A DNA stretch of 31,374 nucleotides, from contig DAOVHV010000001.1 of the NCBI GenBank assembly GCA_030671645.1, positions 1 to 31,374 of the forward strand, given 5' to 3'. This stretch comes from a bacterium. GTDB lineage: Bacteria; Bipolaricaulota; Bipolaricaulia; UBA7950; UBA9294. The translations under genes and the position numbers were made by a program. Positions 14,719-31,374 of the stretch are shown here, piece by piece; within the stretch, counting starts at the first letter, position 1, and each line of letters opens with the position of its first letter. The notes beneath the pieces were generated by a model, which ran no database searches, was not told where the DNA came from, and was given only the letters and a program-made list of their open reading frames with translations.

Positions 14719-17421
14719 ATGTACATTCGAGAGAGTATTGATTTCAATGGTAAAGAACTGACTTTAGAGACAGGACAAATCGCAAGACAAGCAGGTGGAG
14801 CAGTACTGGTCGCACACGGGGACTCGCACGTATTGGTCACCGTGGTGACCGCGGAACCCAGACGAGACATCGGATACTTCCCGCTACGCGTGGATTACGA
14901 AGAGCGATTCTACGCGGCCGGAAAGATCCCAGGAGGGTTTTTCAAGCGGGAAGGCCGTCCCAGTGACGCCGCCATCTTGACGGGGCGCATGATCGACCGC
15001 CCCATCCGCCCTTTGTTCCCCAAGGGATACAACGACGAAGTGCAGATCGTGGCGATGGTGCTGTCGGCTGATCCGGACTGCCCACCCAATATATTGGGCA
15101 TCCTTGGCGCATCGGCGGCCTTGATGATTTCGGACGCACCGTTCCAAGGCCCGATCGCCGGCGTACGCATTGGCCGGGTAGACGGCCAGTTCGTCATCAA
15201 TCCGGATCTAGAAACCCAGGTAACCTGCGGCGTTGAGATCACGGTGGCCGGCACCAAAGACACCGTCACCATGGTCGAGGGCATGCTGAATGAGCTATCC
15301 GAAGACGAGGTCGTCGAGGCCATCGAAATCGCGCACGCCGCCATCCGTCAACTAATCGGCCTTCAAGAGCAGTTCGCCGCGCGTGTGAACCCGGTCAAGA
15401 AGGAAGTCCCGGAACAAGCACCCGAGGACGAGTCCACACTCACGCAGGTGCGCGACATTGTGTGGAGCCAGTTCTCCGCCATCCATACGCTTCCTACCAA
15501 GAAGTCCCGTGACGAATTCATGCGTGGCTTGCGAGAACAGGCAATCGAGCGACTGGTGCCCGATCATCTCAATCTCACTGAGGAAGAAAGTGCAGAACGG
15601 ACCGAAACCGTCTCCAAAGCGGTGGAAACACTGCTCAAGGAATACATGCGACAGGAGATCCTTGAACGTGGCATCCGTCTGGACGGTCGTCGTCCCGAGG
15701 AGATCCGATCCATCAACTGCGCCGTCGGCGTACTGCCGCGGGCGCATGGGTCGTCGCTGTTCACGCGTGGCGAAACGCAGAGCTTGGGTATCATCACGCT
15801 GGGTGCCACACGCAGCGACGAGCAAATCATCGACCAGATGATGTTCGACGGCCGCAAGCGGTTCATGTTGCATTACAACTTCCCGCCGTTCTCGGTTGGC
15901 GAAGTGGGACGCATCGGATCGCCGTCCCGCCGTTCGGTGGGACACGGCTACTTGGCCGAGAACTCGCTTAAAGCCGCCATGCCGTCCGAAGAAGACTTCC
16001 CGTACGTCGTGCGCATCGTGTCGGAGATCCTGGAATCGAACGGATCCTCGTCGATGGCCACGGTGTGCAGCGCGTCGATGGCCATGATGGACGCCGGCGT
16101 GCCGCTCAAACGACCCGTCGCCGGCATCGCCATGGGACTCATCGAGGATCCAAACACACAGCAGCGCGTTATCCTGACTGACATCCAAGGCGCCGAGGAC
16201 CATTTCGGCGACATGGATTTCAAGGTCGTTGGAACGCGAGAAGGAGTCACTGGCTTCCAATTGGACGTCAAAGTTGGCGGCATCGACAGCGCTACCATGA
16301 AGTTGGCGCTGGAGCAAGCCAAGCGCGCACGCTTAGCCATCCTTGATGAGATGGATCGCGCCATTGCCGAGCCGCGGGAAGAGCTGTCACCGTACGCACC
16401 CAAACTCGCCACGATCGAGATTCCCACCGAGAAGATCGGTGCGGTCATCGGTCCTGGTGGCAAGATGATTCGCAGGATCGTCGAAGAAACCGGAGCCGAG
16501 ATCGACATCTCCGACGACGGAACCGTCAAGATCGCGGGACCGAACTCGGAAGCCGTCTATGCAGCTCAGGAATGGATCGAAGACCTGACCAGCGAACTCG
16601 AAACGGGCACTGTGATGAAGGTCAAGGTGACACGCATCGTCGATTTCGGCGCCTTCGTGGCCTTGAAGAACGGATCGGAAGGCTTGGTACATGTTTCAAA
16701 CCTGGCGTCCGGATACGTGGACAACGTTCGTGACATTGTCAGCCCCGGCGATGAGATCACCATCGAGGTCATCGGTGTCGACAAGATGGGACGTCCCGAT
16801 CTCAAGAAGATCGATGGCGATGGTGATGCCAAGCCTAGGACCCCAAGGGGTGGAGGTAGCGAACAACGCGAAAGCGCCTCCGCTGAGAGATCGGCGCCCA
16901 AGGTGGAGGTTCATGTCGGCGACATCATCGACGGTACGGTCACCAACACGACTGACTATGGCGCGTTCGTGGAAATTGCTCCCGACGTCACCGGATTGGT
17001 GCACATCTCCGCGTTGTCCGACGAGTACGTCCGCCGCGTCACCGACGTCGTCAAGCCGGGCGACCCGATCAAAGTGGAAGTCTTGAACATCGACGACCGC
17101 GGTCGCTACAAGCTGCAACGCATCGTACCGGAATCGGAGAAGAAGCCGATCGAGGACGTAGAAACCTCGGCGGAAGAAAGCGAAGGTGGCGAGGGCGAAC
17201 AGCCTACGACCGTTCAGTCTGAGGTTACTCAGCCTACGCCAGCTCAATCCGAGACCGTCCAGCCCGAACCCGAGCAACCGGAACCGACACCACAGCCCGA
17301 ACCCGAGCAGCCCGGACCCGAGCAATCCAAGCCGGCTCAGCCTGAGACCGTTGATGAACCTAAAATCGCTGAAGAGCCGACTCCCGACGAGGAGCCGGCG
17401 GAATTCGAGGACCGTTGGTAA
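14719..17421 (+). CDS. pnp: Polyribonucleotide nucleotidyltransferase with KH, two S1 domains and an acidic Pro/Glu-rich tail
   Basis: ETGQIARQA, FFKREGRP, RAHGSSLFTRGETQ, HYNFPPFSVGE, ESNGSSSMA, DHFGDMDFKV, KH (GAVIGPGGKMIR), two GAFV...GLVH[VI]S S1 repeats. Confidence 0.97.
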   Translation: MYIRESIDFNGKELTLETGQIARQAGGAVLVAHGDSHVLVTVVTAEPRRDIGYFPLRVDYEERFYAAGKIPGGFFKREGRPSDAAILTGRMIDRPIRPLFPKGYNDEVQIVAMVLSADPDCPPNILGILGASAALMISDAPFQGPIAGVRIGRVDGQFVINPDLETQVTCGVEITVAGTKDTVTMVEGMLNELSEDEVVEAIEIAHAAIRQLIGLQEQFAARVNPVKKEVPEQAPEDESTLTQVRDIVWSQFSAIHTLPTKKSRDEFMRGLREQAIERLVPDHLNLTEEESAERTETVSKAVETLLKEYMRQEILERGIRLDGRRPEEIRSINCAVGVLPRAHGSSLFTRGETQSLGIITLGATRSDEQIIDQMMFDGRKRFMLHYNFPPFSVGEVGRIGSPSRRSVGHGYLAENSLKAAMPSEEDFPYVVRIVSEILESNGSSSMATVCSASMAMMDAGVPLKRPVAGIAMGLIEDPNTQQRVILTDIQGAEDHFGDMDFKVVGTREGVTGFQLDVKVGGIDSATMKLALEQAKRARLAILDEMDRAIAEPREELSPYAPKLATIEIPTEKIGAVIGPGGKMIRRIVEETGAEIDISDDGTVKIAGPNSEAVYAAQEWIEDLTSELETGTVMKVKVTRIVDFGAFVALKNGSEGLVHVSNLASGYVDNVRDIVSPGDEITIEVIGVDKMGRPDLKKIDGDGDAKPRTPRGGGSEQRESASAERSAPKVEVHVGDIIDGTVTNTTDYGAFVEIAPDVTGLVHISALSDEYVRRVTDVVKPGDPIKVEVLNIDDRGRYKLQRIVPESEKKPIEDVETSAEESEGGEGEQPTTVQSEVTQPTPAQSETVQPEPEQPEPTPQPEPEQPGPEQSKPAQPETVDEPKIAEEPTPDEEPAEFEDRW
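17260..17324 (+). repeat. Three near-identical 17-bp copies (CAGCCCG[A/G]ACCCGAGCA) encoding QPEPEQ-type repeats in the PNPase tail
   Basis: Copies at 17260-17276, 17293-17309 and 17308-17324. Confidence 0.85.
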
Positions 17422-19240: not shown

Positions 19241-19596
19241 AACACGCAAAGTACGGCGGGTAGCGAGCCAGCCTATCTTCCCCGGTAGTTCGGAGTTCCC
19301 TCACTAAATAGGAGTTCGCACCTTGGACGAGGCGATTGATCGATTCGTTGAGCGTCCTTTGGTCCTTTCGCTCCGGTTGTGCGACCGGGACAACATGGCG
19401 ACCACGACAAGGGATCACGTTCAGTTCATCAGGCCACGTGCCACACCCAGATGTTTTCGATGTCATTTCGCACCCCTGTCAGGCGCTACAGCTCCTTGCG
19501 GAGCCATATTCGGATAGGATAAGCATACTTCTCAGACCTTGCTACCTCGGAGCGATGGAGGTGGGTTTGAGCTTCAACACGAGCCAGGAGGCAAAC

Positions 19597-20586
19597 GTGG
19601 CTAAGCGAGTGGACAAACCAACGTACGAGATTGATCCCGCCGTTCATGGACGATTCGACGAACGCGACACGATCTTCATGCGCCGCTTCTGGGATCATGC
19701 GGCAAGTTTTCACGGTGTCGAGTTCCGCGACCGGGCGGCCGAGCGAATCTCGGCGAAGGAAGCTGGCTACTCGCGGATTGACTTCGCCCGCGTTCTTGCG
19801 TCGTGGACGGTACACAACTGCTTCGGCGGCGCCTTTTCGTGGGATCGCCTCGGACAGGCCGACCCGAGCATGATGCAGTTCGACCGCTATGAGGCCGACC
19901 CGGAAGAAATGACCGCGGAGGTCAAGCGGACCGCGCGGCTGTTCGGGGCCGATCTGGTCGGCATCTGTGAAGTCAACGATCAGTGGATCTATTCCCATGA
20001 TCGCAGCGGCGACCCGGTGGAGATCCCCTCCGAATGCACGCACGCCATCGTGATGGCAATCGCCATGGACAAAGAAGGCGTAGCGACGTCACCTGAATAC
20101 TCGTCCGCGGTCTCGACCGGTGTTGGCTACTCGAAGATGGCATTTGCCATCGCCAGCCTGTCTGAATTCCTGCGCAATCTACGATACAAGGCACTGCCGA
20201 TGGGCAACGACACCGCGCTCAGCATCCCGCTGGCCATCGACGCCGGACTGGGGCAGCTTGGGCGGAACGGACTGCTGATTACATCGGAATATGGCCCCTG
20301 CATCCGGCTCTGCAAGGTCTTCACCGACATGCCGCTTGTCACCGATCGGCCGATTGATTTCGGATTGACCACGTTCTGTCGGACCTGCGATCGATGTAGC
20401 GAGGCTTGCGGAGCCGACGCAATCAGCACCGACACTGAGCCGACGTTCGATGTCGCATGTCCGTAGAACAACCCTGGGATCAAGCGATGGGCAGTAAACG
20501 CCGACCGCTGCTATGAGTTCTGGGCAGAGAACACGGCCGCATGCTCCAACTGCATCGCCGCTTGCCCATTCTCAAAGATCAACTAG
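19597..20586 (+). pseudogene. Reductive dehalogenase-like (RdhA family) cobalamin/Fe-S protein, no Tat signal, interrupted by in-frame TAG at 20464-20466
   Basis: AGGAGG then GTG 19597; GADLVGI, GYSKM, SIPLAIDAGLGQLGRNGLLIT..YGPCIRLCKVFTD, DRPIDFG..FCRTCDRCSEAC. Reading through the TAG gives NNPGIKRWAVNADRCYEFWAENTAACSNCIAACPFSKIN* (second Fe-S motif). Pseudogene, sequencing error and readthrough cannot be distinguished here. Confidence 0.75.
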
Positions 20587-21893: not shown

Positions 21894-22496
21894 TCAGTTC
21901 TGGTTCGTGGAAATAGTGGCGCACCGCAGGAAGTGGAATATGTAGTTGCCAATGTACTTGTGCCACTCCGGTTCGGGATCAGACGTCCCTCGCTCTTCCC
22001 ACGAGAATTCCGTTGCGTAGCGGACGAATTTGCCTTCAGCGTCCACCAATTCGGCTTGCTCATAGCTCAAGATGCGGTAGAGGTACGGGACACCGTTCTG
22101 TAGGATACTGAACGAGGTGCATGGTTCAAGAGGGAGAAGAACCGCAAATGGAAGAGGGGCCAGCGCTTCCAGCGGAGATTCCTCTTCGGTGAGCATCGCC
22201 GCTTGAGAAGAAGGAGAGTCCTCGGTCAAGAATATGCTGACCACGGTCTCATCTGCCCCATTGAGCTTCGTGGCTGTAAAGAACCGGAGATTCTCATAGT
22301 CGAGCGTATCTCCCGTCTCCGCGAGCAGTGCTTCAATCGGCTCGCAACGCTCTTGTACCCGTTCGATCAATCCCTGACGATCGAATACGCTGCTCGACAT
22401 GGCCGAGGTTGGCGTGGCGGGCCGCTGGAAAAGGCAACCCACTACCATCAATACCACCAGGATCAGACCCAAAAAGACACCCAATCGTCGCGTCAT
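21894..22496 (-). CDS. Hypothetical lipoprotein
   Basis: AAGGAGG RBS; MTRR + hydrophobic stretch + lipobox-like VVGC (Cys21); 200 aa, no recognised domain. Confidence 0.7.
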   Translation of the reverse strand: MTRRLGVFLGLILVVLMVVGCLFQRPATPTSAMSSSVFDRQGLIERVQERCEPIEALLAETGDTLDYENLRFFTATKLNGADETVVSIFLTEDSPSSQAAMLTEEESPLEALAPLPFAVLLPLEPCTSFSILQNGVPYLYRILSYEQAELVDAEGKFVRYATEFSWEERGTSDPEPEWHKYIGNYIFHFLRCATISTNQN

Positions 22497-23016: not shown

Positions 23017-23121
23017 GGAGTGTCCAAACTCACAGCTCTGTCTACAGGAGGCCTGAGCTGTCAACCAATTCCGGTACTGGACATGCTAGGCAGTCAAGAA
23101 CTGTGGCATACTCGATATGAC

Positions 23122-24366
23122 ATGCCTTCCATTGAACGGATCATCATCGCCACCCTGCTAGCCATCACAACGGCCGTTCTCGGCGTTCGTGCCGAACAGC
23201 TGGCGTTCCCGCCGGACGTGGGGACCAATCACCTTGGTGTCCTATGGCCCGGATCCGATCCTGAGTACACGGGCGCCTGGGTTCGACCGCATCCCGGTCC
23301 GTTCGTCTGGGGTCTCATTGAGAGGACACCCGGAACCTACGATTGGAGGGAGTCCGACCTCGTCGTCGAGAAGCTACAGGGGGAACGCTTGGCCGTGCTC
23401 GCCACGGTCTGGCCGTTTGCCTCGTGGGATCAAAGGGCGTGCCATCTGAGCGAGCCGCCCACACGAGGTGCATTCAAGGAGTTCGACGATCTTCTGTATA
23501 TGCCGTGCGACATGCCGGGCTATCTGGCATGGCTCGCTGCACTGGTCGAACGGTATGACGGAGACGGTGTGGATGATATGCCCGGGCTCGCTTATCCGAT
23601 CCGGCACTGGGAGGTCCTGAACGAGCCTGAGATGCAAGGGCCCCAACTCACGTTCTTCCAGGAGCCGCCGGATGTCTATTGCGAGCTTCTTCGTGCTTCT
23701 TATCACGTGATCACGACAGCCGATCCGCTGGCCGTAGTTCTTCCAGCCGGGCAGTCCGGGATGCATCGCGAAGCTACCGCCTACTGGCGGCCCATCCTCC
23801 AAGATGAGACTGTGCCGTTCGATGTGGGGAACATCCATTCCATTCGTGCGACCGACATGCAGCAAGAGTCGGCCTTTTGGGCACCAGAGTATCTGGCATT
23901 TCTCGCTGACACCGGCAGGTCCGACGTGGGGTACTGGATCACGGAAGCACAAGTGGGTGCCGTCGGTCCCAAGGGGCAGATGACCGACGCGCAAAGCGCC
24001 GAGGCCTTGTTCATCGGCACTGTAGTGGCACTTGCCGAGGGTGCCGAGGTTATCTTGCACGTGTTGGCCAACGATCCGAAAGGCGAGAAAGGACACGCCA
24101 CCGTCGACACTGCCAATCTGTTGGGACGAATGATCGGGAGCTTCGCTTCCGTGGAACACGTGAGCCCCTATGCGATCCGTTTCGACATGCCCGGTGGGGA
24201 ACAGATCTACGCCCTATGGAAGGGTGGCGTTCTTCCGGCGGAAGTCGCAGGAACGGTCATGGTCACCACGTACCTTGGCACAACGAGCTCGATGGATGCA
24301 CGCGAGGTCTCCGCCGCCGTCTCGATGCTGGCCGAACCATTGCCTACAGAGAAACAACTGCCCTAG
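23122..24366 (+). CDS. Secreted clan GH-A-like glycoside hydrolase (family unassigned)
   Basis: Signal peptide MPSIERIIIATLLAITTAVLGVRA; YDWRESD; WEVLNEPE (acid/base NEP); GNIHS; YWITE (nucleophile). Start chosen at ATG 23122 rather than the track's 23020. Confidence 0.65.
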   Translation: MPSIERIIIATLLAITTAVLGVRAEQLAFPPDVGTNHLGVLWPGSDPEYTGAWVRPHPGPFVWGLIERTPGTYDWRESDLVVEKLQGERLAVLATVWPFASWDQRACHLSEPPTRGAFKEFDDLLYMPCDMPGYLAWLAALVERYDGDGVDDMPGLAYPIRHWEVLNEPEMQGPQLTFFQEPPDVYCELLRASYHVITTADPLAVVLPAGQSGMHREATAYWRPILQDETVPFDVGNIHSIRATDMQQESAFWAPEYLAFLADTGRSDVGYWITEAQVGAVGPKGQMTDAQSAEALFIGTVVALAEGAEVILHVLANDPKGEKGHATVDTANLLGRMIGSFASVEHVSPYAIRFDMPGGEQIYALWKGGVLPAEVAGTVMVTTYLGTTSSMDAREVSAAVSMLAEPLPTEKQLP

Positions 24367-24575: not shown

Positions 24576-25301
24576 TTACCTGCTCTTGCGAGCCAGGTAG
24601 ATCGTGTTGGACGACTCACCGCCCGAGTATCGGTTCGGGAAGGTCACAATATGGGACTGGGAAGACCGAAACACGGCATCGAGCAAACGAGTGAATTCCG
24701 CATCCGGGGGATCGTTGGACCACAGTCCGAAGATGCCGCTGGGATGGAGCTTGTCAGCCAGGCTCCGAAGCCCCGGCACCGTATAGAAGGCGCTGTTTCC
24801 CGGGGCAAGCCAATGGCTGGGTGAATGATCGATATCCAGCAACACAGCATGAACCAGTCGGGTCTGGGCCGCATGATCGAATCCGCCCACGGATGACGAT
24901 GCCAATTCAAAGAAGTCGGCATGGACAAAGGTACAGCGGGGGTCTGAGGTCAATTCCTTCCCAAGCGGCACGAGGCCCCGACGATGCCAGTCGATGACAG
25001 GACCCATCACCTCAATCACCATGAGCGACCTGACTGACGTATGTTCCAGGGCAGCAACCGCCGTATAGCCCAGGCCCAGCCCGCCGACCACGATGTCCAA
25101 ACCGGTACCTTCAAGCGCGGCCAGGCCGAGTCTCGCAAGCTGAATCTCGGCGGTGGTGAACAGGCTGGACATGAGGAATTCGTCGCCAAGCTTCACCTCA
25201 TAGATAATCTCCCCTTCGCGCCGGAGGTCCGCCCGACGCCTCAGACTGATTGTCCCCAGAGATGTCTCCTGGTAATCCAGTTCTTCGAAATCCAACGCCA
25301 T
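24576..25301 (-). CDS. Spermidine-synthase-like class I SAM-dependent methyltransferase-fold protein
   Basis: EFLMSSLF, IVVGGLGLGYT (GxGxG), VIEV, HADFF, VLLDIDHSP, GIFGLWS. Confidence 0.75.
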   Translation of the reverse strand: MALDFEELDYQETSLGTISLRRRADLRREGEIIYEVKLGDEFLMSSLFTTAEIQLARLGLAALEGTGLDIVVGGLGLGYTAVAALEHTSVRSLMVIEVMGPVIDWHRRGLVPLGKELTSDPRCTFVHADFFELASSSVGGFDHAAQTRLVHAVLLDIDHSPSHWLAPGNSAFYTVPGLRSLADKLHPSGIFGLWSNDPPDAEFTRLLDAVFRSSQSHIVTFPNRYSGGESSNTIYLARKSR

Positions 25302-25432: not shown

Positions 25433-25876
25433 TCAGTTTCGGCGAGCTCGCCGGTAGTACCAGACGACGGCCACGCCGACAATTCCCAACAGTGACAACA
25501 CGGCCGCGAAGATAACCCAGGTCCATTCCGGCGGTGTGATGCCCCGATATGCTGGCCTCCGATCGAAATCGATCCAAGGCCCAGTGCGGCCGAGGACGTA
25601 GATCAGAACCCGAAAGGCGTGAAGAATGGTCGCAGCAGCAGCGATCCGCAGGGGGAGCCAAGCACGAGCCTCGCTCCCAGCGATCCACCACCAAGCAGAC
25701 CCCACGACGGTTCCCACGTTGAGCAGGAACTCAAGGACAAGCAGCGCGGAAGCCCACGACATCAAAGTCGTCATGGAGCCGTCGGTCAACATGATAACGG
25801 TCCTGAAAAGCAACACGCAGATACCCAACCCCACAAGGGTTGCGTAGGTACGTTGTCGATTCCAAGTCATGCTCAC
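25433..25876 (-). CDS. Hypothetical integral membrane protein (about 4 TM)
   Basis: Four hydrophobic segments and a basic C-terminus; GGAGG-like RBS upstream; start may be ATG 25870. Confidence 0.65.
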   Translation of the reverse strand: MSMTWNRQRTYATLVGLGICVLLFRTVIMLTDGSMTTLMSWASALLVLEFLLNVGTVVGSAWWWIAGSEARAWLPLRIAAAATILHAFRVLIYVLGRTGPWIDFDRRPAYRGITPPEWTWVIFAAVLSLLGIVGVAVVWYYRRARRN

Positions 25877-26007: not shown

Positions 26008-26502
26008 TTAAGCGCTTGCTGCCAGCAGCTTCTTCACGTGCGGGATGAGGCCGCCGTCTTCGAGGATGGCCAATACTTCCGGCGGAAGCGGTGGGAAGCC
26101 ATACGTCTTCCCGTCGTGTTCAACCACACCGTCAGCAAAGTCGATGCCGACTTGGTCGCCGGTTTGAATGGCATCCGTCCCTTCGGCCAACTCGATCACG
26201 GGCAAGCCGCTGTTAATGGCGTTACGGAAGAAGATGCGCGAGAACGACGGCGCGATGATGGCGGCCACGCCGGCAGCCTTCAAGCAGGTCGCTGCTTGTT
26301 CACGCGATGATCCGCAGCCGAAATTCTTGCCAGCTACGATGATGTCGCCGGGTTGAACGGCTTTGGCGAAATCAGGATCGAGATCTTCCAGCGCATGCTC
26401 GGCCATCTCAGCCGGTTCCATCGGTTGGTACGTGTACTTCCCGGGGAAGATGACATCGGTGTTGACGTCGTCGCCGTATTTCCAAACGCGTCCTTTATTC
26501 AT
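26008..26502 (-). CDS. LeuD/HacB/DmdB-family aconitase-like hydratase small subunit
   Basis: GGAGG RBS then ATG 26502; GRVWKYGDDVNTDVIFP, VAGKNFGCGSSREQA, FSRIFFRNAINSGLP, GGLI. Confidence 0.92.
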   Translation of the reverse strand: MNKGRVWKYGDDVNTDVIFPGKYTYQPMEPAEMAEHALEDLDPDFAKAVQPGDIIVAGKNFGCGSSREQAATCLKAAGVAAIIAPSFSRIFFRNAINSGLPVIELAEGTDAIQTGDQVGIDFADGVVEHDGKTYGFPPLPPEVLAILEDGGLIPHVKKLLAASA

Positions 26503-26523
26503 CGCTTCCTCCACATTACTTCC

Positions 26524-26873
26524 TGTGTCTCGCAAAGCCGCAAAGGTCGCCAAGGGGAACCAGACCCAACAGCAATGTCCTCGTTGCAGAACAGACTCGT
26601 GTGCGGCACTAGGCTCTCCACTTCCGTCATTTCTACTCTATCCTTGTCTTTCCTTTGCGCTCTTTGCGGCTTTGCGAGATACAGTCTGTCTTTTCTCGCC
26701 CGTTCGCTACGCTCACTCAAGCCGCCAAGAGGCCTTCTGTTCTTGCCCTTCCCTCAATAACGCTCTTCTTTGCGACCTTCGCGTCTTTGCGAGAGATCGC
26801 ATTTCAGGACCACTGCTACATCTGAGTGTTTCAGTCTTTGCTTCCTCTGCGCCTCTGCGTCTCTGCGGGAGAT
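26524..26873. repeat. Cluster of (CT[T/C]TGCG-N1-2)x3 repeat arms separating leuC-like from leuD-like gene
   Basis: Arm A 26524-26555 is a 28/32 inverted match to arm B 26652-26683. Further direct arms at about 26768-26794 and 26845-26873, and CGTTCGCTACGCTCACTC at about 26701-26718. Confidence 0.8.
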
Positions 26874-26930
26874 TGGCAACGCCCTGCGTTGCTTGGAGAA
26901 AGGCGACAACTGCCTTTCTCTTGTGCCCGA

Positions 26931-28187
26931 CTAGAAGAATTCACGAGGATCGGTGATTACGCCGGTGACGGCCGAGGCGGCTACGGTCGCCGGCGATCCA
27001 AGATAGATCTCGGCGTCACGCGATCCCATCCTGCCCTTGAAGTTGCGATTGGCTGTCGAGATGGTGGCTTCGCCCGGCGCCATTACGCCTTGATGCGCGC
27101 CCAGGCATGGACCACAGCCAGGATTCAACAACAAGCCGCCTGCCTTGACCAGCGTATCGATGACACCTTCCTTCAACGCCTCAAGCAGGATCTCTTGCGA
27201 CGCGGGCAAGACAAGCAATCGCACGCCGTTGGCGACTTTGCGGCCTTCCAAAATCTTGGCCGCCACCCGCAGGTCTTCCATGCGGCCGTTAGTACAAGTT
27301 CCCAGCAACGCTTGCTGAATCGGCTTGCCGGCCACATCCTCCACCGGAGACACGTTATCTACAGTATGCGGCCGGGCCACTTGCGGACCTAGGGCCGAAG
27401 CATCGAATTCCATCACCTGTTCGTATTCTGCGTCATCATCCGGGAACACAGTCGTATATTCGCCCTCGGCACGGTCGGCAAGGAATGCGGTGGTCTTGTC
27501 ATCAGGCGCGCAGTAGCCGTTCTTGGCACCCATTTCGATGGCCATGTTGCACAACACCATGCGCGAGGCAATCGACATCACCTCAACCGCCTCCCCGCTG
27601 TACTCGACCGACTTGTACAAAGCGCCGTCGGCACCGATGGTACCAATGATGTGCAGGATCAAGTCTTTGGCCGACACCGGATCGGTAAGATGGCCATGCA
27701 CGACGATTTGGAAGCTCTCCGGCGTTTTGAGCCAGATGCGCGAGGTGGCGTACAGAACGGCCATTTCCGAGCGGCCGATGCCCGCCGAGAACGCGCCGAA
27801 CGCACCGTAGGTTGTCGTGTGCGAATCCGATCCCAAGATCAATCGTCCAGGGAGCGCGAAGCCCTTTTCCGGCAGCACTTGATGGCAGATCCCCATGCCC
27901 ACGTCGTAGAAGCGGCGGATGCCGTTTATCTTCACGAATTCACGGATTTCCTTGTGGTTCAGAGCATACTTTTCCTGCGACGCCGGTACGGTGTGATCCA
28001 GCACGATGACGAACTTGTCGGGATCCTTCACTCGAGACACGCCGATCTTGGCGAACGTCTTGGCAATGGCGGCCGTGTTGTCGTGTGACAGGCAGATGTC
28101 GGGCTCGATTTCCACGATCTGGCCGACGTCGATGGAATCAAGTCCGGCTTTGGCCGCCAGGATCTTTTGAGCAAACGTCATCCCCAT
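26931..28187 (-). CDS. LeuC/HacA/DmdA-family [4Fe-4S] hydratase large subunit
   Basis: SHDNT, VLDHTVP, GICHQV, GSDSHTTTYGA, GTCTNGR, PGCGPCLG, STANRNFKGRMG, SPATVAASA; 418 aa short (archaeal/firmicute) type. Confidence 0.93.
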   Translation of the reverse strand: MGMTFAQKILAAKAGLDSIDVGQIVEIEPDICLSHDNTAAIAKTFAKIGVSRVKDPDKFVIVLDHTVPASQEKYALNHKEIREFVKINGIRRFYDVGMGICHQVLPEKGFALPGRLILGSDSHTTTYGAFGAFSAGIGRSEMAVLYATSRIWLKTPESFQIVVHGHLTDPVSAKDLILHIIGTIGADGALYKSVEYSGEAVEVMSIASRMVLCNMAIEMGAKNGYCAPDDKTTAFLADRAEGEYTTVFPDDDAEYEQVMEFDASALGPQVARPHTVDNVSPVEDVAGKPIQQALLGTCTNGRMEDLRVAAKILEGRKVANGVRLLVLPASQEILLEALKEGVIDTLVKAGGLLLNPGCGPCLGAHQGVMAPGEATISTANRNFKGRMGSRDAEIYLGSPATVAASAVTGVITDPREFF

Positions 28188-28191
28188 CAGA

Positions 28192-28725
28192 TCACCCCTC
28201 GATCGGGTCGAAGTTCATGAAATCGGCGAAGTGCAGGATGATGGACTCGGGAATGCGCTTGAAGGGATCGCCTTCCTTGGAATGCGTGCCGATGATGTGC
28301 TGCACGGCCGCAGGAAGCCCGTGCGCATCGGCTAACGCCACGCCGGAGAAGGCATGTCGCACCAGCACCCCGTCCGCGCTCTTGCGGAAGACGCCGTCGA
28401 CTTCTTCCATCTCCACCAGCTTGCCAACATCGTGCAGCAGAGCACCGGCCAGCAACATATCCTTGTCCAGGTTGAGGTCGACGCCACCGTAGATCTCATC
28501 AAACGTATCGGAGACAGCGGCGCAGATCCGGGTCACACTACGGACGTGCTGCGCAAACGATGCCGACACCTTCTTGGCGAGCGTGAACGGCATCCGTTCG
28601 ATGTCCTCAGGCGTCCATCCTCCCCGTTCCAATCCCGTGATCCAGGTCGCGATGACCTTTTCACGCAAGTCGGCGTCCCCGATCCACTCGATTTCCGGCA
28701 AGATCCGTATCAGTTCCTCTCTCAT
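28192..28725 (-). CDS. HD-domain metal-dependent phosphohydrolase (177 aa)
   Basis: ATG 28725 overlaps the citF stop (ATGA); motifs QHV, ALLHDVGK, RHAFSG, THS, HFADF give a full H...HD...H...H...D set. Confidence 0.88.
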   Translation of the reverse strand: MREELIRILPEIEWIGDADLREKVIATWITGLERGGWTPEDIERMPFTLAKKVSASFAQHVRSVTRICAAVSDTFDEIYGGVDLNLDKDMLLAGALLHDVGKLVEMEEVDGVFRKSADGVLVRHAFSGVALADAHGLPAAVQHIIGTHSKEGDPFKRIPESIILHFADFMNFDPIEG

Positions 28726-30266
28726 TCGAATCCCTCCACCTTCCGAACCACATCGATGATGGTTCCGTCGCGCCACTCGATAGCGGCGATGATTTCGTCC
28801 CCGAATACGGGTTTTCTTACCGGTTGAATCATCCCGTCGACTTCCGCCTTGATGTCGGCCAGCTCTTTCACCGGCAAGCCGGCAGCCAGGAAGCACTCCT
28901 TGAGATCCTCGCGCTTCGGATTCACGGCCAAGCCGCGCTCGGTCACGATGACGTCCACGACTTCGCCGGGCGTTGTCACAGTAGTGACTGAATCCACGAT
29001 CACGGGAATGCGCCCGCGTAGCGTGGGGATGGTGATCATGGTCATGGACGCGCCGGCAGCGACGTCCTGGTGCCCGCCGATGCCGTGCAGCAGCAGTCCG
29101 TCGGAATGAGTATTTACGTTGACGTTGAAGTCGAGATCGACCTCGGTGGCGCCAAGGAAGGCGGCGTCGAGCTTGTAGGTCGCGCAGCCGCGCGAGTCGT
29201 AGTCGGCATACATGCCGGGATCCATCATGAGATGGGCCGGATCTTCGTGGAGAGATTCGACGGCATCCAGGTCAAACGCTTGACCGTCAAGGATGGCGCG
29301 GATCAGCCCGCGACGCAGCAGACCGACCAGCATCTTTGTCCCTCCGCCTATGGCGAACGAGCCTACGATGCCGGCTTTCTCCATCTCCTCACCGAGGTAT
29401 TTGGTGGCCGCCAGCGAGATGCCGCCGGCTCCGCCTTGGAAGCTGAATCCGTCGACAAAATAGCCGGAGTTCACGACGGCGTCTGTGGTCAGCCGTGCAA
29501 TCAACAGCCGAGTCGGCGACTTGGTCAGTCGCAGCGTTCCGGACGCGATGTTCTCCGGATCGCCGATCTCATCCACCACAACCACGTGATCGACCCAGCC
29601 TTGTTGAATCTCCATCGGGTGCACTGGGTAAGGGGCCAGATCGTTGGTAATGACCACCGTCTTTTTGGCGTACTGCGCATCGACCGCGAGGAAACAAATC
29701 GGACCACACGGCGTCGTTCCTCGGATGCCGGTGGCATTGCCGTAAGGATCGGCTTGCGGCGCGGCGATAAAAGCAACGTCGATTTCTACGTCCCCCGCTT
29801 CCACGGCGCGCCAACGTCCACCATGCGATCGCAACACCGCCGGCTCGGTCAGTTGTCCACCCTGACTCACAAACGCTCCCACGGGTCCGTTCATCGAACC
29901 TTCGATGCGCGACACAACACCGGCCTTGATGTGATCGATCACACCGGCGTGAACTGGGAACAGAGCCGTGGGAAACAGGCGCAGATCTCTCAAGCCCTTC
30001 TTCGCGCAGGCGTCGAGCACTTGATTGATAACGCGATCGCCGTCACGGAACGAATGGTGGAACGAGATCGTCATGCCGTCCGACAAGCCGGTAGCATCGA
30101 TGGCTGCTTCAATTGAGGAAAGCACCTTGTTCTCGTTCTGGGGTGCTCCTTTCTGATGCCGCGGCGCCTTGCGATGATCGCGCAAGATCGCAAAGGCTCC
30201 CTGAAAAGGGATGACTTCGCGGGAGCCGACATGTTCGGGGATCTCTCGACCGATAGTGTTCTTCAT
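28722..30266 (-). CDS. citF: Citrate lyase alpha subunit-like ACP transferase
   Basis: LSDGMTISFHHSFRDGD, LRSHGGR, DVAFIAAP, GFSFQGGAGG, LGATEVDLDFNVNV, GIGGHQD, TPGEVVDVIVTERGLAVNP. Confidence 0.93.
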   Translation of the reverse strand: MKNTIGREIPEHVGSREVIPFQGAFAILRDHRKAPRHQKGAPQNENKVLSSIEAAIDATGLSDGMTISFHHSFRDGDRVINQVLDACAKKGLRDLRLFPTALFPVHAGVIDHIKAGVVSRIEGSMNGPVGAFVSQGGQLTEPAVLRSHGGRWRAVEAGDVEIDVAFIAAPQADPYGNATGIRGTTPCGPICFLAVDAQYAKKTVVITNDLAPYPVHPMEIQQGWVDHVVVVDEIGDPENIASGTLRLTKSPTRLLIARLTTDAVVNSGYFVDGFSFQGGAGGISLAATKYLGEEMEKAGIVGSFAIGGGTKMLVGLLRRGLIRAILDGQAFDLDAVESLHEDPAHLMMDPGMYADYDSRGCATYKLDAAFLGATEVDLDFNVNVNTHSDGLLLHGIGGHQDVAAGASMTMITIPTLRGRIPVIVDSVTTVTTPGEVVDVIVTERGLAVNPKREDLKECFLAAGLPVKELADIKAEVDGMIQPVRKPVFGDEIIAAIEWRDGTIIDVVRKVEGFE

Positions 30267-30272
30267 ACTTAC

Positions 30273-31374
30273 TTACTTGCCTCCCTCAGCCAGCCGCTCG
30301 CCATATTTGAGGGTTCGCTCCGCACGTTCCAACACCGGACGGTCGATCATCTTTCCGTCCAGGGCCACTGCACCCGAACCGGCTCGCTCCGCATCCTCGG
30401 CCGCCTCCACGACACGTCGGGCATGCTCCAGCTCGTCGTCGGTGGGAGAAAACGCATGATGGATGGACGCCAGCTGTCGAGGATTGATGGCGCCCTTGCC
30501 GTCAAATCCCAGTTCGCGCGCCAACGCACACTCTTTGGTCAATCCCTCTTCATCGGCAAGGTCGGCATAGACCGTGTCCGAGGCCTGAATTCCGGCAGCC
30601 GTCGCTGCCGCCACGATCATCGATCGTGCGAACAACATCGAACGCCTCGTTCGCAACGCACCCACATCGCGTGTGAAGTCCTCGGCACCGAAAGCCAGCA
30701 TGACAACGCGCGGATCGGCGGCCGCAATCTCCTCGCAGTGCAGCACGCCTCGGGCCGTCTCGATGATGGGCATGATCTTGGTGAAGCCGGGTTCGATGCC
30801 ACAGGCACCTTCGACTTCATCCAGCAACTTCGCCAGCCTGGTTACGTCAGTAGCAGATTCGGCCTTGGGCAGACAGAGGCCGTGCGGACGTCCCTGCAGC
30901 ACCTCTGACACGTCCTCTTCTCCTCCCGCGTCCAATTCGTTAATGCGCACCCAGACTTCTTTCGGGAATGCAACGGCTGCGAGAAGATGTTTGACAAGAA
31001 TGCGGGCCGCCGCCTTCTCCGAAACGGGCACGGAATCCTCCAGATCGAGCAACACACAATCGGCGCCGTGAATCTCGATGCCGGCCAGCAATCGAGGATT
31101 GTTCCCGGGCGCGTAGAGGCGGCTCCGCCTGGGACGATCGGACTCAGTTGCCTGTCGCTGAATCCGGGGTTCGAAGGGCGCCGCCTCCAACGGCAAGGCC
31201 GCTCGCACGGCGGTTTCCGTTCTCGCTGCCAGCACATAGTCGAGGGATCCGAAATCCTCCACCGAAACGGCCAGGCTCGGAGATCCGTATTGGATCAACG
31301 TTTTCTCGACAACGATTTGAATTCCCGGAGCAACCAGGTTCTGTGCCTTGGCCTTGACCTCAATATGCGGTGAC
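30273..31374 (-). CDS. citE: Fused citrate-lyase ACP (CitD-like) + CitE-like lyase beta subunit; 5' end beyond window
   Basis: The frame is open to the window edge: SPHIEVKAKAQNLVAPGIQIVVEKTLIQYGSPSLAVSVEDFGSLDYVLAARTETAVRAAL (resembles the CitD C-terminal half, D.GALD..I.AR.ETAV). It continues into RRSRLYAPGNNP, LDLEDSV, WVRIN, IETARG, FGAEDF, GFDGKGAINPRQ, DGKMIDRP. Confidence 0.88.
   Translation of the reverse strand, partial: SPHIEVKAKAQNLVAPGIQIVVEKTLIQYGSPSLAVSVEDFGSLDYVLAARTETAVRAALPLEAAPFEPRIQRQATESDRPRRSRLYAPGNNPRLLAGIEIHGADCVLLDLEDSVPVSEKAAARILVKHLLAAVAFPKEVWVRINELDAGGEEDVSEVLQGRPHGLCLPKAESATDVTRLAKLLDEVEGACGIEPGFTKIMPIIETARGVLHCEEIAAADPRVVMLAFGAEDFTRDVGALRTRRSMLFARSMIVAAATAAGIQASDTVYADLADEEGLTKECALARELGFDGKGAINPRQLASIHHAFSPTDDELEHARRVVEAAEDAERAGSGAVALDGKMIDRPVLERAERTLKYGERLAEGGK

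Follow-up and report, generated by a model that had tools for sequence, protein, structure and literature searches.

The window analysed here, which is the whole stretch of DNA under study, is the entire contig C92 (31,374 bp) of a Bipolaricaulota genome (1.2 Mb in 201 contigs, 73.5% complete). Proteins closely homologous to its products carry the name Candidatus Bipolaricaulota. At one end of the contig lie five co-oriented genes, all on the minus strand, that encode the CitE and CitF subunits of a citrate-lyase-type enzyme, an HD-domain protein and the two subunits of a LeuCD-type hydratase (Table 1). The gene calls reproduced exactly the five co-oriented genes and the spacings reported in a first-pass annotation of this DNA, i.e. 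6 nt between citE and citF, an ATGA overlap between citF and the HD gene, 4 nt between the HD gene and leuC and 428 nt between leuC and leuD. A citD gene had also been listed; the family is present (PF06857), not as a separate gene but as an N-terminal part of CitE, in whose open reading frame (ORF) residues 1-58 belong to the CitD/MdcD carrier family. The fused citD'E ORF runs into the contig end; complete versions in relatives have 388-392 aa, and about 22-25 codons are missing here. As annotated earlier, no leuA or leuB, lysine-pathway or citC, citG or citX gene was found in the window.

Table 1. Positions of the operon genes and of the leuC-leuD spacer in the window.
Feature	Position	Strand	Description
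citD'-citE fusion	30273-31373	(-)	5' end open at contig end; degenerate carrier domain and citryl-thioester lyase beta subunit
citF	28722-30266	(-)	citrate-lyase alpha subunit, acetyl-thioester:citrate CoA-transferase type
HD-domain gene	28192-28725	(-)	177 aa; conserved module partner; PF01966
leuC	26931-28187	(-)	large subunit, [4Fe-4S] hydro-lyase, 'YTY' clade
leuC-leuD spacer	26503-26930	no strand	lineage-specific 428-bp insert; arms of three 8-9-nt CTTTGCG-like units
leuD	26008-26502	(-)	small subunit, 164 aa, loop motif K-Y-T-Y-Q

A citrate-lyase-type enzyme with a degenerate carrier domain

In textbooks, citrate lyase exemplifies enzymes that depend on a coenzyme A (CoA)-like arm attached by a covalent bond, and on three helper proteins; the arm, 2'-(5''-phosphoribosyl)-3'-dephospho-CoA, is carried by Ser14 of CitD. 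CitF from the window belonged to PF04223 (4e-152), scored above the equivalog cut-off for citrate-lyase alpha subunits (TIGR01584, 560 bits against 501.45) and was 43% identical to E. coli CitF over its full length (485 residues). CitE fell into the HpcH_HpaI fold family (8e-55), with its carrier part matching the acyl carrier protein (ACP) family PF06857 at 1.6e-8, and was 42% identical to E. coli CitE as measured on the ortholog of a relative from the same genus (G006, locus L009). The identities of the two subunits to the corresponding copies in other phyla, described below, were 35-51%.

Seven full-length orthologs from the family were aligned in their N-terminal domain with E. coli CitD. 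Where E. coli has G-T-L-E-S14-G-D the family has G-S-D-A-K-x-D, with an invariant lysine at the Ser14 position in all seven orthologs and no invariant serine near the carrier site. The window copy ends before the part of the N-terminus that holds this site, and the lysine is known from the full-length orthologs of the family. The fused carriers of the sister genus g23 and of Acidobacteriota, Gemmatimonadota and Phycisphaerae have R-S-D at the Ser14 site, and the Synergistota have a separate CitD in which the canonical serine is kept.

The accessory proteins of the canonical enzyme, the ligase CitC as well as CitG and CitX for synthesis and transfer of the prosthetic group, were searched for as well. 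None of the three was found in five relatives (the closed genome G035, and G038, G014, G006 and G012), the genome of the window, at its 73.5% completeness, yielded no CitG or CitX either, and no E. coli-like CitC, CitX or CitG was present within 8 kb at any of the 80 loci selected by similarity to the HD protein (see below). The isolated subunits CitF and CitE are known to accept acetyl-CoA and citryl-CoA in free form. Given this property of the isolated subunits, and because the attachment serine is lost and CitC, CitG and CitX were not found, the lyase probably acts on free CoA thioesters and does without a carrier. The replaced serine and the missing helper proteins speak against the ACP-dependent lyase of the first-pass annotation, while its inference that the operon does not serve plain citrate fermentation of the CitCDEFXG type was supported.

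A LeuCD-type hydratase apart from the leucine enzyme

LeuC and LeuD fitted only the broad archaeal-type LeuCD/HacAB subfamilies, and every equivalog cut-off lay above their scores. For LeuC these were 572 bits with PRK00402 and 556 with hacA_fam, with 499.8 for LEU2 (TIGR02083, cut-off 610.65) and 496.5 for HacA_Meth (cut-off 550); for LeuD they were 199 bits with TIGR02087, 179.8 with leud (TIGR02084, cut-off 245.85) and 147-175 with the HacB models (cut-off 230). The specificity loop of LeuD reads Y-T-Y-Q, compared with YLVY in the isopropylmalate/citramalate isomerase and YLRT in the homoaconitase of M. jannaschii, and the closest solved small subunit was the former of these (6e-45). Neither the arginine-bearing YLRT loop nor the equivalog scores of a homoaconitase HacAB were found, and 3-isopropylmalate isomerase was matched neither in equivalog scores nor in the leuA/leuB company expected of the leucine copy of a genome. 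A [YF]-T-Y loop was present in every LeuD, or LeuD domain of fused forms, that belongs to the gene set described below, across phyla. In a tree built without characterised references for isopropylmalate isomerase, homoaconitase and DmdA, the corresponding LeuC proteins formed one cross-phylum clade (support 95/88) apart from the LeuC of Bipolaricaulota leu operons.

Six relatives (G003, G009, G012, G013, G015 and G018) also carry a separate leuA-leuCD-leuB operon, and the two coexisting LeuC proteins are only 45-48% identical. No HMGL-like gene (LeuA, CimA, homocitrate synthase) was found in four genomes (closed G035, and G038, G014 and G006) that have kept the operon LeuCD, and three of these four are also without IlvD. 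Judged by these comparisons at the sequence level, the LeuCD of the operon is not a leucine enzyme and the operon serves neither leucine synthesis nor canonical citrate fermentation; for leucine, the separate clade, the coexisting paralogue and the retention in genomes without a LeuA-family gene agree with what had been annotated earlier.

No IlvD, LysA or LysW was found in any of the three g23 genomes. Published descriptions present Bipolaricaulota as fermenters of peptides and sugars whose synthesis of amino acids is limited (10.1101/207811), and the absence of HMGL-like, IlvD, LysA and LysW genes fits this description. Two biosynthetic routes were considered and ruled out for g23: lysine synthesis by the aminoadipate route, an idea raised by a neighbouring argF gene in relatives, as LysW and LysA are not found there, and branched-chain amino-acid synthesis, as there is no IlvD or LeuA-family gene.

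Conservation in Bipolaricaulota and two further partners

CitF was present in 23/24 genomes of the window's family and in 2/3 of the sister genus g23. On long contigs and at individual loci (L003, L005, L008, L009, L012 and L013) the order argF-citD'E-citF-HD-leuC-leuD was fixed, with argF scoring above the equivalog cut-off for ornithine carbamoyltransferase, and the window region is the 3' five-sixths of this conserved operon. Family identities to the window proteins were 54-75% for CitD'E, 74-86% for CitF, 75-90% for the HD protein, 78-90% for LeuC and 76-90% for LeuD.

Genus g23 has no argF and carries a single string, citD'E-citF-HD-leuC-leuD-IsoA-PrpD-like, in which IsoA is a beta-decarboxylating dehydrogenase of 373 aa and the PrpD-like product a 459-aa member of the MmgE/PrpD family. 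In the window's family an IsoA ortholog (60-63% identical) adjoins a PrpD-like gene at a second, unlinked locus; all 24 family relatives have IsoA, and at both of the family loci inspected the neighbour of the PrpD-like gene was the IsoA-type copy. The PrpD-like gene of the window's genome is located at C99:29-1408, with 28 bp between it and the start of the contig. The closed g23 genome G032 is without CitF, the operon LeuC and IsoA, all together. The flanks of the IsoA-PrpD-like pair, and those of the gene set in other lineages, consisted of housekeeping or variable genes.

In most family relatives a further, separate gene cluster encodes a fused aconitase-family protein of 634 aa, an NADP-isocitrate dehydrogenase that passes TIGR00183 and an ATP-citrate lyase (ACL)-like enzyme (L017:5905-13000; G035); no such cluster was found in the incomplete genome of the window. 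In one Bipolaricaulota genome aclB and aclA are inserted between citF and the HD gene (L035:4500-7900), 67-69% identical to the copies at L029.

A module shared by many phyla

A search with the HD protein gave 430 cluster representatives at E < 1e-10. One genome per species was scanned and 80 loci in at least 15 phyla were chosen by HD similarity only and annotated by tblastn with the reference proteins of the gene set, hereafter the module. The counts below use the loci flanked by 4 kb or more in each direction, and they do not represent independent events since the lineages are interrelated. A LeuC-type, IsoA or PrpD-like gene was found within 8 kb at 44/46 loci outside Bipolaricaulota, with neither these genes nor a citrate-cleaving system at the other 2/46. 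At 31/46 there was a citrate-cleaving system, either CitE with CitF (21 loci) or the citryl-CoA synthetase CcsAB, the citryl-CoA lyase Ccl or ACL (10 loci). HD orthologs with 42-50% identity were seen among the same kinds of neighbouring genes in 15 phyla or more. The linkage of citF, HD and leuC, for which a gene-neighbourhood check had been suggested, is strongly conserved in the family relatives. In the window itself an HD ortholog stands next to a LeuCD whose loop is of the [YF]-T-Y form and to a citrate-cleaving system of the Si type, as at these 31 loci.

The typical gene order varies with the phylum. In Acidobacteriota and Gemmatimonadota it is HD, PrpD-like, a fused LeuCD, IsoA, CitD'E and CitF; in Chloroflexota CcsA, CcsB, Ccl, HD, in some cases a second LeuCD, LeuCD, IsoA and PrpD-like; and in Synergistota a GntR/FCD regulator, HD, two LeuCD pairs, IsoA, CitD, CitE and CitF. 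The regulator of Synergistota was the only recurrent hint in the flanks. The distant HD members (40-49% identical) are preceded by citryl-CoA synthetase/lyase or ACL and followed by one or two LeuCD pairs and an Iso_dh-family gene. IsoA orthologs of Bipolaricaulota, Chloroflexota and related metagenome loci were 58-69% identical to each other and 50-55% to an ACL-linked copy, and they share the motif S-P-I-V and an insertion of about 20 residues. The second LeuCD pair (L028, L031, L032, L068 and L098, from Chloroflexota and Synergistota) formed a distinct clade (support 100/100) with LeuD loops such as Y-L-H-I and Y-L-A-E. This suggests that two half-reactions are split between the pairs, which Bipolaricaulota may cover with the PrpD-like enzyme.

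The operon of Bipolaricaulota and the unlinked IsoA-PrpD-like pair are the local version of this many-phylum module. No paper describing the operon or the module was found in the literature on citrate lyase in Bipolaricaulota/Acetothermia or on PrpD, citrate lyase, isopropylmalate and homocitrate, and the published reconstructions of Bipolaricaulota contain only ACL or an incomplete tricarboxylic acid (TCA) cycle (PMC4725000; PMC9586279; 10.1101/207811).

On one unassigned metagenome contig (L025) two large proteins of 564 and 902 aa (L025:5307-7001 and L025:7608-10316) without Pfam or NCBIfam match flank the HD gene and are located between citryl-CoA-lyase-type genes and a LeuCD pair.

Proposed reactions and the choice of substrate

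We tentatively read the module as an ATP-independent link between citrate, isocitrate and 2-oxoglutarate, for which the CoA dependence, citrate as the substrate and the division of labour between the PrpD-like enzyme and LeuCD are inferred. CitF would move the thioester between acetyl-CoA and citrate, and CitE would cleave (3S)-citryl-CoA to acetyl-CoA and oxaloacetate or form it from them, both on free CoA and with no tethered prosthetic group. The PrpD-like enzyme and the 'YTY' LeuCD would then interconvert citrate, cis-aconitate and isocitrate, and IsoA would interconvert isocitrate and 2-oxoglutarate plus CO2. The net reaction, acetate + oxaloacetate <-> 2-oxoglutarate + CO2, would be reversible and independent of ATP. 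In a peptide-fermenting lineage the flux could start at 2-oxoglutarate, which would be reductively carboxylated to give isocitrate and then citrate, and end in acetate and oxaloacetate at no ATP cost. Speculatively, argF acting as a catabolic ornithine carbamoyltransferase would fit this direction from 2-oxoglutarate to acetate, routes of arginine breakdown that include this enzyme having been described (PMC11032458).

Several lines of evidence favour citrate. In other phyla CcsAB with Ccl, or ACL, stands in place of CitEF beside the same set of HD, 'YTY' LeuCD and IsoA. To our knowledge all three lyase systems are known solely as enzymes of (3S)-citryl thioesters, and citrate is favoured as the substrate for this reason. 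CitF passes the citrate-lyase equivalog cut-off, and CitF and CitE resemble the E. coli subunits (43% and 42%) no less than they resemble the copies of the module in other phyla (35-51%). The aclBA insertion between citF and the HD gene in one Bipolaricaulota genome also belongs here. In the closed Phycisphaerales genome G045, which has the module at L084 together with two citrate synthases and AcnA, the sole Iso_dh-family gene is the module IsoA and neither a monomeric isocitrate dehydrogenase nor a LeuA-family gene was found; the module IsoA is therefore the only candidate isocitrate dehydrogenase of this genome. All genes of the aconitase, Iso_dh and citrate-synthase families that were found in the Chloroflexota genome G044 belong to its module.

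Stereochemistry points in the same direction. Si-type enzymes act on the pro-S arm and aconitase-family enzymes on the pro-R arm, and a beta-decarboxylating dehydrogenase needs a 2-hydroxy-acid. Without a stereochemical change, only citrate would suit the lyase, the hydratase and the dehydrogenase together. PrpD, however, dehydrates 2-methylcitrate toward the arm added by the Si-type synthase, by syn elimination, and the PrpD-like enzyme together with LeuCD could isomerise any (S)-2-substituted malate, which keeps readings with homocitrate and citramalate alive. In the earlier proposal the hydratase makes the tertiary alcohol that the lyase cleaves. With IsoA and the PrpD-like enzyme as further parts of the pathway, the alcohol would more likely be handled by the PrpD-like enzyme than by LeuCD.

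A number of observations weigh against the citrate reading. CitE scored well below its equivalog cut-off (TIGR01588, 279.7 bits against 443.4). The loop of LeuD has a tyrosine where homoaconitase has its carboxylate-binding arginine. No IsoA gene was found in the genome of the window, which is only 73.5% complete; it was probably lost there at the break of contig C99. The best NCBIfam scores of IsoA were with the methanogen homoisocitrate dehydrogenase and LEU3_arch models, under every cut-off, and it has S-P-I-V where isocitrate dehydrogenases have S-x-N-V, with isoleucine at the position of isocitrate dehydrogenase Asn115. The separate aconitase/NADP-isocitrate dehydrogenase/ACL cluster of most relatives makes a second route from citrate to 2-oxoglutarate look redundant, and the Acidobacteriota and Gemmatimonadota genomes with the module likewise hold citrate synthase, AcnA and other Iso_dh genes; aerobic phyla that carry the module have the complete set of citrate synthase, AcnA and isocitrate dehydrogenase. 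Of the substrates named in the first-pass annotation (aconitate/isocitrate, citraconate/citramalate and homocitrate-like acids), the evidence leans, though not decisively, to citrate and isocitrate over citramalate.

The homoisocitrate score of IsoA could instead be taken at face value. The module would then work in a seven-carbon series, in which 2-oxoadipate and CO2 give homoisocitrate (IsoA), cis-homoaconitate and homocitrate follow ('YTY' LeuCD and PrpD-like) and CitEF yields 2-oxoglutarate and acetate; this would be the upper aminoadipate route in reverse, e.g. for the breakdown of lysine or aminoadipate in a peptide fermenter. The homoisocitrate dehydrogenase of T. thermophilus was among the top solved matches of IsoA, the isoleucine at Asn115 is shared with homoisocitrate dehydrogenase, LeuC and LeuD scored high for the hacA and HacB families, and the complete citrate/aconitase/isocitrate dehydrogenase sets beside the module in many genomes argue for a different substrate. 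This reading nevertheless appears rather unlikely. The arginine missing from the LeuD loop counts against homoaconitate as well, and the lyases CitE, CCL and ACL are of the Si type whereas the acetate-derived arm of natural (R)-homocitrate is the opposite one, so that a stereochemical switch or (S)-homocitrate would be needed. In addition, IsoA is the sole candidate isocitrate dehydrogenase in closed G045, no lysine-pathway gene is adjacent in Bipolaricaulota, and the saccharopine-dehydrogenase family was found in all 41 relatives, including operon-less G032 and family f2, and does not track with the operon.

A more general reading, which we consider unlikely, takes the module as the Si-type counterpart of LeuA-type 2-oxoacid chain elongation. 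Carrier-less CitEF (or CcsAB with Ccl, or ACL) would make or cleave an (S)-configured 2-substituted malate, the PrpD-like enzyme (syn) and the 'YTY' LeuCD (anti) would isomerise it, IsoA would decarboxylate the isomerised product, and the HD protein would be essential as a catalytic or maturation component. Anaerobes would run this sequence backwards and ATP-neutrally, shortening 2-oxoglutarate or 2-oxoadipate to acetate and the next lower 2-oxoacid.

The substrate might also be a small or hydrophobic 2-substituted malate (citramalate/citraconate/3-methylmalate, isopropylmalate or D-malate), with pyruvate or another 2-oxoacid and acetate in exchange with the next higher 2-oxoacid. The loop of LeuD, which has no basic residue at the specificity position, and its nearest solved relative, the M. 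jannaschii isopropylmalate/citramalate isomerase, are compatible with such a substrate, as are the Ile-Val of IsoA where isopropylmalate dehydrogenases have Leu-Leu and the match of the CitE domain to the (S)-citramalyl-CoA lyase model RipC_Ccl, at 175 bits and under its cut-off. A PrpD-type syn-dehydratase could furthermore turn an (S)-tertiary alcohol into the cis-alkene required by LeuCD. We still find this quite improbable, given that the citryl-CoA synthetase/lyase and ACL that act as partners in other phyla are known for citrate only, that CitF scored above the citrate-lyase cut-off, and that synthesis of 2-oxobutyrate or ketoisocaproate would be useless in g23, which has no IlvD or LeuA-family gene. 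Simpler ferredoxin-oxidoreductase routes for 2-oxobutyrate and branched 2-oxoacids are available to these fermenters (10.1101/207811).

Finally, a chance neighbourhood of an ordinary ACP-dependent citrate lyase, a leucine leuCD and an unrelated HD gene, with the accessory genes unassembled, would be in keeping with the incomplete state of the window's genome (in which no other aconitase-family gene was seen) and with the citF equivalog score, but is hardly credible in view of the absent carrier serine, of CitC, CitG and CitX missing from five relatives including a closed genome, of the genuine leu operon present separately in six relatives, of LeuC and LeuD scores under the leucine cut-offs and of the recurrence of the HD/LeuCD/lyase association in at least 15 phyla.

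Comparison with known systems

The module can be set beside four known systems. CitDEF with CitC, CitX and CitG (EC 4.1.3.6; E. coli, Klebsiella pneumoniae, lactic acid bacteria) shares CitF, CitE and the CitD-family domain, and a CoA-transferase and a citryl-thioester lyase would be expected in both. The operon differs in that its carrier is fused to CitE with a lysine at the Ser14 position and is not accompanied by CitC, CitG and CitX, and in that its lyase is embedded with HD, LeuCD-type, IsoA and PrpD-like proteins and has argF as the first gene. CcsAB and Ccl of Hydrogenobacter thermophilus, and ACL, replace CitEF in the modules of Chloroflexota, Acidobacteriota and others and have free citryl-CoA as an intermediate, as proposed here; these enzymes spend or gain ATP, whereas the exchange of the thioester with acetate by CitF would need none, and their folds are different.

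The methylcitrate cycle of E. coli and Salmonella likewise pairs an MmgE/PrpD dehydratase with an aconitase-family hydratase, and gene content suggests that in both cases each enzyme performs one half of the isomerisation of a tertiary to a secondary alcohol after a Si-type C-C enzyme. The hydratase of the module is of the LeuCD type and not AcnB, a beta-decarboxylating dehydrogenase takes the place of methylisocitrate lyase, and the PrpD-like protein scored far under the PrpD equivalog cut-offs (about 100 bits against 458-950). The isopropylmalate isomerase (MJ0499/MJ1277) and homoaconitase (MJ1003/MJ1271) of M. jannaschii and the AksF/LeuB-type dehydrogenases are alike in subunit architecture, size and best family scores. 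The module departs from archaeal LeuCD/HacAB by its Y-T-Y-Q loop, its scores under the equivalog cut-offs, the lack of a LeuA/AksA-type synthase partner and a clade apart from the leu-operon paralogue.

A widespread citrate lyase without the arm, if true, would alter the reading of metagenomic citE and citF genes, which in the absence of citCGX are now often scored as 'citrate fermentation' or ignored. The operon is part of a six-protein module in more than 15 phyla, from soil Acidobacteriota and digester Synergistota to seep Bipolaricaulota, and in some genomes the module supplies the only candidate isocitrate dehydrogenase or aconitase. Knowing on which substrate it acts, and in which direction, would help to complete the maps of central carbon metabolism for many anaerobes that have not been cultured, and would bear on the interpretation of incomplete TCA cycles.

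The HD protein

The HD protein matched PF01966 (1e-10) and the HDIG domain, and both the fold and the metal ligands of the HD superfamily were present, the ligands H60, H98-D99, H124, H148 and D168 being invariant in Bipolaricaulota. Identity across the window's family was 75-98%. In some distant orthologs the histidine of the 'HD' pair is replaced, and several arginines and lysines are conserved. The predicted structure had an HD fold (mean predicted local distance difference test score 86) and its best solved match was the HD domain of YhaM (template modelling score 0.64); a fold search against solved structures returned generic HD folds only, and the protein atlas unnamed HD clusters only. 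The score for a predicted complex of the HD protein with the LeuC-LeuD pair was 0.00, which counts neither for nor against binding. The gene is usually directly upstream of the LeuC or PrpD-like gene. The HD protein is a constant partner of the module, for which a maturation or repair factor of the Fe-S hydratase, an off-pathway thioester or phosphoester hydrolase and a metal-dependent decarboxylase are candidate roles.

Occurrence in metagenomes, the leuC-leuD spacer and neighbouring genes

DNA near-identical to the window was found in cold-seep metagenomes of two studies. In an assembly from a marine-sediment metatranscriptome (RNA library) there were exact-match contigs over citD'E, citF and leuD; expression of the operon in marine sediment is possible, as is carry-over of DNA into the library.

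The leuC-leuD gap in relatives is either 10 nt or an overlap (L003, L012 and L008) or contains inserts of 277-688 bp (L005, L009, L013 and L011). In the window spacer the arms include inverted pairs, one 33 nt long with 88% complementarity and one of 27 nt, and the arm motif also occurs on a few other contigs of the same genome. The depth in DNA runs was 3-4x higher over 26400-26800, with a variant that skips 97 nt (26555 to 26653). A search for consensus promoters and terminators in the spacer and in the surroundings of leuD gave none.

Between coaD and leuD there are five ORFs of 147-448 aa without Pfam match (19336-20466, 21894-22496, 23020-24366, 24576-25301 and 25433-25876), the last of which encodes a predicted membrane protein directly downstream of leuD, and the whole stretch is missing from the syntenic region of L005. 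The polynucleotide phosphorylase encoded at 14719-17421 has 900 aa and two S1-domain matches, and the genes rpsO, pnp, an M16 peptidase gene and coaD form a conserved block that adjoins the operon.

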